DNA from: a virus
Taxonomy: Duplodnaviria > Caudoviricetes
Direction: 5' to 3' (one strand)
Length of the DNA stretch: 64,000 nt
Virus record (IMG/VR): IMGVR_UViG_3300028805_000081
Coordinates: 32,001-96,000 of that record
Shown: piece after piece, positions 30,652 to 55,572 of the stretch
Numbering within the stretch: position 1 is the first letter of the stretch
Layout of the letters: every line of letters starts with the position of its first letter
Translations under genes and position numbers: made by a program
Notes under the pieces: model-generated
What the model saw: the letters and a program-made list of their open reading frames with translations, nothing else
What the model was told of the DNA's origin: nothing
The model's database searches: none

Positions 30652-31686
30652 ATGAAAAGTAAGTTATTTGACAAAGCTTTTGATACGTATGTCTTAACAC
30701 TCTCTGCGGTTAATCAAAAACGTATACCAAGATTACGGAAAAGCGTTGAGATGTTTGAGAGTCAAGGATATGATCTTTCTAAAATGACAAGATCGGAAGC
30801 AAAAGAATTATCCAGCATAATATGTGACGGACTGTCTTATACGTCTGCGGTTTCATATTGTGCAGTTCTTAACCGATTTCTTAAAGACGTAGAGGATCAA
30901 ACAGGCAAACAATACGAAAAGGTTTATGCAACGAGAAGTGTAGTAAACTGTCCAACATATGCTTCAGAAGATCAATTTCTTGATGAAGTTGAAAATCAAA
31001 TTGAAGCATTTACATCTGAGATGCAACGTGACAGAAATTTGAATGAGGAATTTACTCAGGAATACAGAAATGGTTTGAATTACATCGCTGTGTATTTAAT
31101 TCTTAGATTTTATGGAATTACAGCTGATGAATGTGTGAACATTAAAATGGAAGATGTATCTGAAGAAAATCAAATCATTATTCTAAACAGAAACGGTAGA
31201 CCGGTACTAAAGAAGTTTAATGATCGAGCGTGGAAACACATTTTAGATCTGAAAAATCAAACTTATGTAGTACATTTTTGGGCGCACATTATTAGAAATC
31301 CGCTGCCGAATACAGGTTATCTATTTAGGAATAATCGAGCAAAGAATAAAGCGGATTACAATGAGAAAAAGCCTATCAGTAAGATTCTGCTATCGTCTGC
31401 ACAATACCGATTAACTAAAGGAAGTAATATAAAAAAGAATTTATCTTTATCAGGAGCTTTTATTTCGTTCCCGAAAAGAATTAGTGATGCTAATGACTTA
31501 TTAGACTATGTACATGATTATATCGGAGATGAACCAATATCTGATGCATCTATTAAAAAGAACTGGTTGTTGTTTTTGGATTATGAAAACGAAATGATTA
31601 AGCAAGCCGAAGCGAAGAAAACGGCTCAGACTAAGAAGAAGCCGGGAAGAAAGAGAGCTGGTAATGCAATAGCAACTACTAATTAA
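30652..31686 (+). CDS. Catalytically degenerate tyrosine-recombinase-fold protein, MrpR(YopR)-like repressor
   Basis: LILRFYGITADECVNIKMEDV box-I-like segment without the catalytic Arg; no HxxR; GYLFR; SPbeta-like context. Confidence 0.55.
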   Translation: MKSKLFDKAFDTYVLTLSAVNQKRIPRLRKSVEMFESQGYDLSKMTRSEAKELSSIICDGLSYTSAVSYCAVLNRFLKDVEDQTGKQYEKVYATRSVVNCPTYASEDQFLDEVENQIEAFTSEMQRDRNLNEEFTQEYRNGLNYIAVYLILRFYGITADECVNIKMEDVSEENQIIILNRNGRPVLKKFNDRAWKHILDLKNQTYVVHFWAHIIRNPLPNTGYLFRNNRAKNKADYNEKKPISKILLSSAQYRLTKGSNIKKNLSLSGAFISFPKRISDANDLLDYVHDYIGDEPISDASIKKNWLLFLDYENEMIKQAEAKKTAQTKKKPGRKRAGNAIATTN

Positions 31687-31962
31687 TATTTAAAAATATA
31701 ATTAAAGTGTTTTAAAAGAATTACAAAGGATGTTTTAAAATTTATAAAAGAATTTAATTAAAAAGTAAGTATATCAAAATGTATAGTAAGAGGGTATTAT
31801 AATGAAAAATGAACGATTAACAAACAAGCTGCTTTTAATGCAATGTAATAGGGATATAATGTGGAAAATAGGGTGAAGTGTACTTCTGTATACGGATAAT
31901 TTTGAAAACAATCCGGGATGATTCCCGTTAGCGAATATCTTTTATATAAAAAAATGAAGATC

Positions 31963-31998
31963 TGACCAGTGATTTTAGATTGCTGGTCATTTCTATTT
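31963..31998 (+). terminator. Intrinsic terminator-like hairpin
   Basis: TGACCAGT...GCTGGTCA followed by TTTCTATTT. Confidence 0.55.
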
Positions 31999-32040
31999 AA
32001 AATTAAGTGCTAAAAGTTCTATAATTTTTATAGAAAGGTA

Positions 32041-32069
32041 TTGACAATCAGTTGGAACTGTGCTATACT
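32041..32069 (+). promoter_or_regulatory. SigA promoter of the RNA operon
   Basis: TTGACA-N17-TATACT with TG extended -10. Confidence 0.8.
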
Positions 32070-32075
32070 ATTATC

Positions 32076-32220
32076 AGTGGCAGAGAGATATGAGTTCTTG
32101 ACAAGCCATTAAACCTCCATTTTACATACGCAGATTAATATCTGCGACTTTCATATTCTTACCTCTTTTGTGTGTCGGGTTTTTACATGCGTGCGGTAAG
32201 ATAGTTTTCCCGGCACACAA
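32076..32220 (+). ncRNA. Candidate sRNA: hairpins joined by anti-SD/anti-AUG linkers
   Basis: Stems GTGGC/GCCAT, CGCAGAT/ATCTGCG and TGTGTCGGG/CCCGGCACA; linkers CATTAAACCTCC and CTTTCATATTCTTACCTC. Confidence 0.5.
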
Positions 32221-32225
32221 TATAC

Positions 32226-32297
32226 TGCGGTATCGTCTAATTGGTAGGACAAAAGAATTTGGATCTTTTAGTTAGGGTTCGAGTCCCTATGCTGCAA
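32226..32297 (+). tRNA. tRNA-Gln(TTG)
   Basis: Cloverleaf; anticodon arm AAAGA-ATTTGGA-TCTTT; GGTTCGAGTCC T arm. Confidence 0.85.
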
Positions 32298-32804
32298 TTC
32301 ATGAGTTACAGTTTTTCATACAATCTCTATCATCCCTAAAAAGCTACTGTGACTCATGACTGTTTTAATTTATTTCTTTCTTTTTGTAGACCTCATGTGT
32401 TGCTCCGGTTCGACTCCGGAGTGATGCAATCATTACCTAATACCTGTTATTCATGGTAAACTCCTATTCAAATTAATCATGGGATTATGGACAGATCCCA
32501 GCATATTGTAGTATGTCAAAGTCCGTTGAAGTTATGGTACTGGCGTGCGGTTCGTCAGATTCGGTTCGACTCCGGATGCTTCAATCAGGAGAAGGGGAAT
32601 ATCTTCTTTAGTCTGAAGTCTTAGTGCGCATAAGATTTAATACAGATAGACACCTGTCGTAATACATGATGTTGCGTGATGTATAATTCGTGCCACGTTG
32701 AGTTTGATAAAATGCTTTTCTCAGTTCTTCGGAATAAAAAACGCAATATGTGGTTTAAACGGAAGGCTTTTTTCACAGAATAAAAAATAAAAGCCTCACA
32801 CAAT

Positions 32805-32878
32805 GGGAATTTAGCTCAGTTGGTTAGAGCACCTGACTGTTAATCAGGGTGTCACTGGTTCAAGTCCAGTATTTCCCG
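32805..32878 (+). tRNA. tRNA-Asn(GTT)
   Basis: Cloverleaf; CCTGA-CTGTTAA-TCAGG anticodon arm. Confidence 0.92.
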
Positions 32879-33052
32879 TTAGTTGCTCCAGCTATCGTGT
32901 TGGTTTGAAATTAGCCACATTCGTGTGTAAAAGAGAACTTCAATTAAACCTTCTGATGAAAACACCGGTTAAGTAGTCGGAAGCTTGCTTTCACATAATC
33001 GCCCAGCTATGGTGAGAAGTTCTGTTAGCTATTGGTGTGGAGGCAAGTATTT

Positions 33053-33135
33053 GGCGGGGTAGTTTAACAGTAGAACATCCGGGAATCTATAATAGATATT
33101 CACGGAAAACGGTGGTGCGACTCCACCCCCTTTCT
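33053..33135 (+). ncRNA. tRNA-like element with anticodon arm replaced by a long irregular hairpin
   Basis: D arm GTTT/GAAC; T arm GGTGG-TGCGACT-CCACC; weak acceptor stem. Confidence 0.5.
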
Positions 33136-33251
33136 TCAGAGGAAACCACATAACAGTCCCGTTCTTTAAGAGATGCAGCAATGTGTGTGATTCGTTTCGC
33201 ACCGGGACTCTTGTAGATTGTCACCTTTATTCATTTAAGGAAGTGTTATAA

Positions 33252-33995
33252 TTGAATATTTTAAAGATTTCAGGAAGCAGATTTGAAGAAGTCATCGCTG
33301 ATGTTCAGAAAGAACTGGGTATCAGGAGAACTAATAATTATGATGATTTCAACAATTCAATTAAAAAACTTATTCGTCCGGAAAATTTCTTATTCAATTC
33401 CTATGTTCTTAGAATTGATGGATTTGAATATAAGGTAAACAGGTTGGAAAATACATTCAGCTATGGTACTACCGACAAAGCTTTTATTCGAGTTAAGATT
33501 GATGCTAAAGATGCTAAAAATGCTATTTATACTGCTACTGAAGTGTCGGGTACTCTTTATGATGAGTTAAGAAAGAAAAGAGATATGCCTAAAAGCAAGA
33601 AGAACGATATGATGACTGAAGGAGTTTACAACACAGTTATCCCAGTTATCTGCTTTGAACGTTATATCATGCAGCTCATGGAGTCCCGGAACGTTACTAC
33701 AGTGGATCTTGAAAAAGTTCAGACTATAGTCAAGACCAGTAAACCGGGGAATAAGGCTAAGAAGAAAAACAAGCCAAGAGTTACTAAAGAAATAACACTT
33801 AATTTTAAGGACATTGAAAGAGTTGTGTATTCACGTCCTGAATTACCGAGAACATACACACATCACGTTGAGTCCTTTGATGTTGCCGGGCATTACAGAC
33901 ACTATAAATCCGGTAAGGTTGTGTTTGTAAAAGGCTATACAAAAGGAAACAAGGATGCTAAAATATCTGATAAAACCTATAAAATAAATCTCTAA
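33252..33995 (+). CDS. Hypothetical phage protein
   Basis: C-terminal VAGHYRHYKSGKVVFVKGYTKG basic motif. Confidence 0.7.
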   Translation: MNILKISGSRFEEVIADVQKELGIRRTNNYDDFNNSIKKLIRPENFLFNSYVLRIDGFEYKVNRLENTFSYGTTDKAFIRVKIDAKDAKNAIYTATEVSGTLYDELRKKRDMPKSKKNDMMTEGVYNTVIPVICFERYIMQLMESRNVTTVDLEKVQTIVKTSKPGNKAKKKNKPRVTKEITLNFKDIERVVYSRPELPRTYTHHVESFDVAGHYRHYKSGKVVFVKGYTKGNKDAKISDKTYKINL

Positions 33996-54793: not shown

Positions 54794-54810
54794 GGCAACG
54801 AGGTAAGAAT

Positions 54811-55572
54811 ATGTTACTTAAAATCACTGAAAAGTGTTCTATGGGATGCACGCACTGTATGAATAATGCAACTCCGGACGGTCAGCATATGTCTGAAAAG
54901 GTGTTTGATGATAGTCTTGACTTCTTAATTAAAAATAATGTACATCAGTCTATTATCTTATCAGGCGGTGAACCAACCGAACATCCGGACTTCGTATTTC
55001 TCATTCAGAAACTTATATCTAAGTTTGAATATGAAAAGAAGCGTACTATTGTAAGTATCACAAGTAATGGATTTTGGTGTCTTGACAACCCGGAAGTATC
55101 TAAGACAATTGCTAAAGGATCTGAATATGTAACTGTCTTTTGGCAGATTTCAACTGATAAAAGGTTTTATCCAAAAGAGCTGCCTTTACACAAGAAGTTA
55201 TGGCGTGAAGAAAACTTTACCTTTTGTGAAGATTGTTGTGAACGAATCTATCCGCAAGGTAGAGCATTAACAAATAATATTCCTTGGCAGTCTAAAGCCT
55301 CAAAATGTTTTAATGTCCGGGCGATCACAAAACAATTGCCAAATCCTACTATAGAGTCTGTAGTAAATGCTCTTATGCAACGTCAAAAGTTCTGTACTCC
55401 AGCAATCAGAATTGATGGCAGTATAGGTGTCGGTGAGTCTGATTTATGTCCGAAAGTAGCATCAATTTATGATAGTTCTGATGAGATCATACGTAGGATA
55501 AAGGAATTTAAGTGTCATCAGTGCGATCATATCAATGATAAGTTACCGAATTTATATAAGAGATTTTTATAA
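54811..55572 (+). CDS. Radical SAM protein
   Basis: CSMGCTHC (CxxxCxxC), SGGEPT, TSNG; Cys-rich C-terminus. Confidence 0.85.
   Translation: MLLKITEKCSMGCTHCMNNATPDGQHMSEKVFDDSLDFLIKNNVHQSIILSGGEPTEHPDFVFLIQKLISKFEYEKKRTIVSITSNGFWCLDNPEVSKTIAKGSEYVTVFWQISTDKRFYPKELPLHKKLWREENFTFCEDCCERIYPQGRALTNNIPWQSKASKCFNVRAITKQLPNPTIESVVNALMQRQKFCTPAIRIDGSIGVGESDLCPKVASIYDSSDEIIRRIKEFKCHQCDHINDKLPNLYKRFL

Follow-up and report, generated by a model that had tools for sequence, protein, structure and literature searches.

We report that positions 32041-33251 of a 64,000-nucleotide (nt) stretch of viral DNA (hereafter the window; bases 32001-96000 of the 109.9-kb IMG/VR record IMGVR_UViG_3300028805_000081, whose completeness is estimated at 60%) form an operon of noncoding RNA, read from the plus strand, in an uncultured large phage of the Clostridia type. 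The operon, which combines tracts complementary to Shine-Dalgarno (SD) sequences with tRNA-like punctuation, is real and conserved, and apparently undescribed. A first-pass annotation had drawn attention to 32076-32470 and proposed that a strong promoter drives an array of hairpin-scaffolded small RNAs (sRNAs), which would be released by tRNA processing and would silence particular genes by pairing with their ribosome-binding sites (RBSs). Its promoter and its stems withstand scrutiny, and we lean, tentatively and from sequence comparison, towards reading the invariant tracts as generic SD-pairing seeds on RNAs that tRNA processing would free; that they are guides for particular genes is unlikely. 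The elements on which the argument rests are listed here, with the evidence for each in brackets where it takes few words.

31963..31998, plus strand: terminator of the upstream gene, a 12-bp hairpin followed by a T run (sequence scan)
32041..32069, plus strand: sigma-A-type promoter, TTGACA-17 nt-TATACT with TG before TATACT (11/12 hexamer matches)
32076..32110, plus strand: P1, a 5'-terminal stem-loop, AGUGGC at 32076-81 with GCCAUU at 32105-10 (covariation)
32110..32121, plus strand: tract 1, UAAACCUCCAUU, an unpaired anti-SD sequence that resembles the 16S rRNA tail (conservation)
32129..32146, plus strand: P2, a hairpin (pairing kept, 2 compensatory pairs)
32148..32165, plus strand: tract 2, CUUUCAUAUUCUUACCUC, complementary to an SD followed by a 7-nt spacer, AUG and AAAG (conservation)
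32168..32220, plus strand: P3, a long stem, 32168-79 with 32209-20, with a 29-nt interior (11 pairs, 2 compensatory)
32226..32297, plus strand: tRNA-Gln (UUG), CCA not encoded (ARAGORN; Rfam tRNA, 56.9 bits)
32300..32360, plus strand: P4, a 14-bp hairpin whose 33-nt loop holds segment 3 of the four segments first proposed (alignment of relatives)
32363..32375, plus strand: U/A-rich trailer UUUUAAUUUAUUU (12-13/13 identical in all relatives)
32396..32428, plus strand: TL1, a tRNA-like minihelix with a 13-bp acceptor/T-arm stack and the T-loop UUCGACU (covariation)
32428..32439, plus strand: tract A, AAUCAUUACCUA, unpaired, directly after TL1 (12/12 in all four relatives)
32449..32465, plus strand: segment 4, UUCAUGGUAAACUCCU, of which only the ACUCCU anti-SD core is conserved (alignment of relatives)
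32481..32501, plus strand: P5, a weakly supported hairpin (83% of alignment cells paired)
32526..32585, plus strand: TL2, a D-armless tRNA-like fold with a 7-bp acceptor stem, a 6-bp anticodon-like stem, a 7-nt loop and a T arm

The operon lies within 31687-33251, a 1.56-kb gap without long open reading frames (ORFs) between two co-directional plus-strand genes: upstream an ORF of 344 amino acids (aa), for which no PHROG match was found, and downstream one that encodes a 247-aa member of phrog_10678. Through homologs of this second protein we reached syntenic contigs that contain the whole gap. Among these, L016 and L147 are 95-99% identical to the window in this region and L018/L019, L020 and L022 are 61-71% identical; L014/L015 represent the same genomic place with an operon that is built differently. 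tRNA clusters are present in all of the syntenic relatives, with varying content, and the gap in the window contains, besides tRNA-Gln, a tRNA-Asn at 32804-32879 (both found by ARAGORN and Rfam). Other routes to relatives were less productive. The two flanking proteins, used as queries, found no relatives in viral or genome contig collections; the 17-mer TATACTATTATCAGTGG gave 2 viral and 119 metagenome matches, all due to chance and none with promoter or tRNA context; the pattern AACCTCCATT...TTCATATTCTTACCTC had no match in genome or viral contigs, and a search with a 27-mer from the T arm had none either. IMG/VR contigs L002-L008, found through a Sak4-like gene, are without tRNAs and without similarity to the operon region, INPHARED phages and PLSDB plasmids gave tRNA matches only or none at all, and the Logan contigs of the closest relatives end inside tRNA-Asn, short of 32076-32470.

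The operon is isolated as a transcription unit of its own by the terminator at 31963..31998, which ends the 344-aa gene and whose hairpin is retained in L018, L020 and L022 with both arms altered. The promoter that the first-pass annotation had placed at 32041 is indeed strong and conserved: its hexamers and TG are invariant in the window and in five relatives (L016, L147, L018, L020 and L022), as are the first bases of the transcript, and L014/L015 have similar promoters. Transcription would start near A32076.

The stable stems that had been noted downstream of this promoter are also real. P1, P2 and P3 are 100% paired over five sequences, with 4 compensatory pairs, against 30-50% in slid controls, and the downstream helices (TL1, TL2 and others) have 95% of alignment cells paired and 9 compensatory pairs, against 35-49% in slid controls. 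Many of the conserved pairs are G-U or U-G on the plus strand and would turn into C-A mismatches if the minus strand were read; because these pairs fit the plus strand only, the functional molecule is a plus-strand RNA. P3 has U-G and G-U pairs of this kind, and P1 shows one change from G-U to G-C. P2 keeps its pairing with only 7-10 of 18 positions identical in L018, L020 and L022, and L014/L015 have equivalent 5' stems of other sequence. The stem of P4 has compensatory changes in L018 and is missing in L020 and L022; P4 is unlikely to be an intrinsic terminator, given its 33-nt loop, its absence from those two relatives and the fact that the sequence scan did not call it. Two further pairings were considered. 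An internal partner for tract 2 (the 5' GAGAUAUGAG with UCAUAU, 6 bp) is unsupported, since L022 shows no matching change, and an alternative closing stem proposed by RNAalifold, CAGUG with UACUG, lies in columns that are invariant. In L018, L020 and L022, P3 encloses a conserved structured insert of about 95 nt, GGUCAAGCAUUAAAAGACGGUAAGACAAUAGCUGAUGCC... (L018:2866-2960, L020:2822-2916 and L022:2549-2643), in place of the 29 nt at 32180-32208 of the window; this insert had no Rfam match.

TL1 and TL2 are tRNA-like elements and not tRNAs; neither is called as a tRNA by ARAGORN or by Rfam (RF00005). TL1 has no D arm and no anticodon arm, and 98.7% of its alignment cells are paired, 6 of its 13 pairs being compensatory and several of them G-U pairs that fit the plus strand only. 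The two strands of its stem, the 5' one and the acceptor-like 3' one, change in step, so that TL1 is not a decayed tRNA, nor is it what remains of an attP site; the possibility that it is an attP core, a 3' fragment of a host tRNA next to an integrase gene, was rejected because the 6 compensatory pairs change the 5' strand, which is not expected of attP. The three helices of TL2 are 92-100% paired with 3 compensatory pairs, and TL2, which lies beyond the 32076-32470 array first proposed, bounds a third RNA unit. Apart from tRNA, a cmscan against Rfam, run at E up to 10, returned only unrelated families, none of which reached its gathering score, and no bacterial sRNA family or known cis element was matched in the operon region.

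Between these drifting helices, four unpaired tracts stay constant. Three of the four (UAAACCUCCAUU, CUUUCAUAUUCUUACCUC, AAUCAUUACCUA and ACUCCU) resemble the 16S rRNA tail, and the tracts are 83-100% identical in alignments where the flanking hairpin sequences are 40-55% identical and whole operons 61-71%. Tract 1 is identical at 12/12 positions in L016, L018 and L020 and at 11/12 in L022, and it does not vary in L014/L015 either, although the rest of their leaders can hardly be aligned; its probability of being unpaired is 0.78-0.99 in six leader folds. Tract 2 is identical at 18/18 positions in L016, L018 and L020 and at 15/18 in L022, with a mixed predicted accessibility of 0.03-0.9. The ACUCCU core of segment 4 is kept in L016, L018 and L022 and shifted in L020, and L014/L015 carry additional 16S-tail-like tracts, UCUCCUUUCUUA and AACUCCUAUU. 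Anti-SD 5-mers are enriched over 32076-32612 (5 observed versus 1.0 in dinucleotide shuffles, P about 0.01, the CTCC count falling partly in T arms), and ACCTCC occurs on a transcribed strand only at this operon in the whole 110-kb record. The tracts are complementary to start regions in general: their median pairing energies with 123 start regions of the phage are -9 to -11.5 kcal/mol, compared with -10.4 for true start-region complements.

All four segments quoted in the first-pass annotation are present where it had placed them, and its description of them as the antisense of an SD plus a start codon is partly borne out: the anti-SD tracts are conserved, and the anti-start codon is kept only in segment 2, which is tract 2. 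The CAU of segment 1 sits within the stem of P1 and is CAC or absent in relatives, that of segment 4 is CGU in L018 and L022, and the loop with segment 3, including UCAUCCCU, is not conserved, its whole hairpin being missing in L020 and L022.

How such an RNA might work can be outlined as follows. The consensus sigma-A promoter would drive a single precursor transcript, which host RNase P and RNase Z would cut at tRNA-Gln, TL1 and TL2. This would free a leader RNA (32076-32225, about 150 nt) and two spacer RNAs of about 100 nt each (32298-32395 and 32429-32525). The 3' end of the leader would be set by RNase P at the 5' end of tRNA-Gln, because no terminator ends the leader and tRNA-Gln follows it directly. 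The G-free invariant tracts between the hairpins could then pair with SD regions across many mRNAs, and tract 2 with AUG-AAA as well; this pairing may hinder binding of the 30S subunit. Release by tRNA processing had been part of the first proposal; the tRNA and tRNA-like elements are suitably placed for RNase P and RNase Z, and it is the gene-specific guide role once attached to the released RNAs that does not survive (below).

Our preference for generic SD-pairing seeds arises because the design matches the C-rich sRNAs of Firmicutes and resembles the c4 RNA processed by RNase P. The phage itself is, to judge from its genes, a large phage of a low-GC Gram-positive host, with strong SD sites; the host assignment follows from its DnaE-type polymerase, which shares 51% identity with the polymerase of Clostridium phage c-st and 46-47% with those of phiCD211-like phages. 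In Staphylococcus aureus Rsa RNAs, conserved unpaired UCCC motifs bind SD sequences and block initiation (PMC2790875), and the C-rich or UCCC sRNAs of Firmicutes include RsaA, C, E, G and H and RNAIII of S. aureus, RoxS of Bacillus subtilis and LhrC of Listeria (PMC2790875, PMC4132741, PMC5419742). Like these, the operon RNAs have a 5' hairpin, helices that vary in sequence and remain paired, and conserved unpaired pyrimidine- or C-rich motifs, often in multiple copies; the defining conserved C-rich motif in unpaired linkers is present as ACCUCC, ACCUC and ACUCCU. Unlike them, the operon carries the full anti-SD in these motifs rather than UCCC or CCCC, it is encoded by a phage, and its RNAs belong to a tRNA operon, from which tRNA-processing enzymes presumably free them, rather than being stand-alone genes with their own terminators. 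No Rfam sRNA family matches them by sequence or covariance model.

The phage-encoded c4 RNA represses phage genes through pairing with a ribosome-binding region. The precursor of this antisense RNA of P1 and P7 is a substrate of RNase P, according to Hartmann et al. 1995 as cited in PMC4919922. The predicted operon RNAs resemble c4 in being small RNAs encoded by a phage, and the layout of tRNA-Gln, TL1 and TL2 is compatible with a predicted maturation by RNase P. They differ from it in lacking a supported specific target, c4 having definite sites within its own operon that co-evolve with it, and in that the operon has several units, true tRNAs and minihelix punctuation; the C4 covariance model found no match in 31600-33400 or in six related loci at E up to 10. 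A further likeness is with the Escherichia coli 3'ETS-leuZ sponge (PMC8166272), in which spacer or leader pieces of a tRNA transcript also become RNAs of their own, although 3'ETS-leuZ sponges sRNAs and not SD sites. tRNA-like punctuation, by folds that cannot decode and that mark cleavage, is found in mitochondrial transcripts, in plant t-elements (PMC1920247) and in the mascRNA of MALAT1. In the literature that we searched, no operon of a bacterial virus has an acceptor/T-arm minihelix and a D-armless fold punctuating anti-SD RNAs. The tRNA cluster of phage T4 also yields small stable RNAs, species 1 and species 2, for which no function is known.

Several observations weigh against generic SD-pairing seeds. 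Tract 2 is poorly open (0.03-0.24) when the uncut transcript is folded locally, and so it is in a number of the homologs. In L147, which is otherwise about 99% identical (L147:262-275 corresponds to window 32157-32175), the CCUCU of tract 2 has been lost in a clean deletion of 5 nt, so that it reads ...UUCUUAUUUUGUG where the window reads ...UUCUUACCUCUUUUGUG. No single target stands out for the tracts, their best energies being those of RBS complements; in the L020-type phage, tract 2 is identical and the orthologous radical-SAM start reads GAGGAAGATTAATTATG (seen in L145); and the pairing energies show no preference for a gene arm or strand (p > 0.3). The sampling amounts to only some five sequence types that are independent of one another. 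An RNA that paired with SDs in general would, moreover, also strike the phage's own SD-dependent genes. The two gene arms do differ in SD flavour. Over the whole record (-32000 to 78000 in window coordinates), GGAGGT-type SDs are found only on minus-strand (left-arm) genes (6 versus 0) and plus-strand genes favour AGGAG (26/54). Targeting of the GGAGGT genes as a class was considered and rejected, because the energies do not differ between the strands.

A possible, though not the likelier, explanation is that the tracts serve the operon's RNA itself, in cis and not on mRNAs: in antitermination (with P2 as a boxB-like hairpin and UUCUUAC as a boxA-like element), in RNase cleavage or tRNA maturation, or in stability, and that their likeness to anti-RBS sequence is incidental. 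The operon is long and untranslated, its hairpins are followed by U-rich runs, and the sequence scan flagged P2 with the following U-rich CUUUCAUAUUCUU as terminator-like; since the operon precedes co-directional protein genes, read-through signals would be plausible. A boxA-like motif may stand next to a hairpin: P2 is followed by AUUCUUACC within an invariant tract, and UUCUUAC resembles CUCUUAC, the core of the lambda nut boxA. The L147 deletion spares UUCAUAUUCUUA, and the conserved trailer UUUUAAUUUAUUU behind tRNAs in two contexts indicates that processing-related motifs are conserved in the operon. On the other hand, boxA is not resembled by ACUCCU or by tract 1 (AAACCUCCAUU), and no element is better conserved than tract 1; several scattered copies resembling the 16S tail are not what one antitermination site would lead us to expect; and Rfam, as said, matched no known cis element. 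The trailer itself follows tRNA-Gln at some distance in operons of the window type and stands directly after tRNA-Asn in L014 (3730-3745), and it may be a conserved tRNA 3' trailer or an RNase Z context.

It is doubtful that the tracts are functionless G-poor linkers, kept unpaired for the sake of folding, whose conservation reflects recent recombination of cassettes and whose anti-RBS likeness is due to chance and composition. The region is a mosaic, in which the tRNA genes look like recombination break-points: L016 is 95% identical to the window over 31687-32804 and 78% over 32805-33995, and since its neighbouring 247-aa protein is only 66% identical, cassettes are exchanged; the Logan contigs of close relatives likewise stop inside tRNA-Asn. 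The small number of sequence types, the tolerance of L147 for loss of CCUCU and the moderate anti-SD enrichment, some of it in T arms, point the same way. Sequence drift is expected, however, where only unpairedness matters, and the tracts are far more constant than the hairpins that flank them; tract 1 is moreover retained in L014/L015, although hardly any other part of their leaders can be aligned.

Improbable, in our view, is a role for the operon as a factory of abundant mimics of the 16S 3' tail, in which a single, strongly transcribed precursor would be cut by tRNA-processing enzymes into several stable RNAs, whose exposed ACCUCC and ACUCCU would titrate SD sites genome-wide or act as a decoy for a factor that recognises the 16S tail.

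The gene-specific guides of the first-pass annotation, which were to bring about timed silencing of the radical-SAM gene (54811), an early gene (22583) and a start at about 54011, are highly unlikely. The observation behind them is correct: there are exactly two copies of the 14-mer GAGGTAAGAATATG, one on the minus strand (32152-32165) and one on the plus strand (54800-54813), the latter directly on the ATG of a 253-aa radical-SAM ORF, so that tract 2 contains an exact 14-nt complement of that start region. Tract 2 also pairs with the 22583 start region at -23.5 kcal/mol, and 9 nt of this region are found in the complement of tract 1 too. That annotation had itself cautioned that RBSs resemble one another; of 80 strong start regions of the phage, 4 have a stretch of 14 nt or more in common with a second one. 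As mock sRNAs we took 123 genuine start regions in reverse complement, and the best-target energy of this null has a mean of -20.8 kcal/mol and a standard deviation of 2.9. The best duplex energies of segments 1-4 (-20.3, -23.5, -17.3 and -23.0 kcal/mol) fall within it, and the segments, including their matches to the radical-SAM, 22583 and 54011 starts, are thus no better than random RBS complements. Because the radical-SAM start differs in L145 while tract 2 is unchanged, the 14-nt complement is not kept either, nor are the anti-start codons of segments 1 and 4 or the loop of segment 3.

Finally, translation of minus-strand mini-ORFs of 5-11 codons, as leader peptides or micropeptides, which had been named as what would overturn the RNA interpretation, is scarcely credible: each motif does precede a short minus-strand frame (MACQELISLCH, MKVADINLRM, MKNCNS and MNNRY), with the stop of the second frame just before the SD of the first, but we reject coding because the peptides are not conserved (the frame behind tract 2 has 10, 15, 9 or 30 codons in relatives, which share only MK), because relatives have lost the starts in segments 1 and 4, because the conserved G-U pairs would be C-A on that strand, and because the conserved promoter, the tRNAs and the surrounding genes are all on the plus strand.

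Some further features of this region are recorded here. An odd tRNA with a 21-nt insertion in its anticodon loop was found at 33053-33135 (Rfam at a relaxed threshold, 35.7 bits). It sits in a 104-nt segment, 33051-33154, none of which BLAST aligns to L009-L013, L016 or L017; because it is unaligned in these relatives and about 26 nt stand in its place in L009-L012, the segment looks like a recent insertion or a dispensable element. The stretch between tRNA-Asn and the odd tRNA, 32928-33042, is 82-87% identical in L018, L020 and L022, above most of the operon. L014 (3420-3650) and L015 (3490-3725) have, upstream of their tRNAs, a conserved and GC-richer structured stretch of about 230 nt and, in addition, a weak tRNA match (39-42 bits), with no match to a further Rfam family.

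Phage tRNA clusters are usually read as a supply of codons, and their spacers are ignored. The spacers of this operon are more conserved than some of its helices, and they carry the sequence with which the ribosome docks onto mRNA. If SD pairing proves to be the wrong explanation, the invariant tracts would still mark processing or antitermination signals of phage RNA operons, and if the operon were to produce mimics of the 16S tail, it would be a global, RNA-only lever on host and phage translation. If the tracts do pair with SD sites, tRNA operons would double as a means of delivering translation regulators without dedicated processing machinery, the acceptor/T-arm minihelix would be a case of tRNA-like punctuation in a bacterial virus, and an RNA-based layer would be added to phage translation control in Gram-positive hosts.

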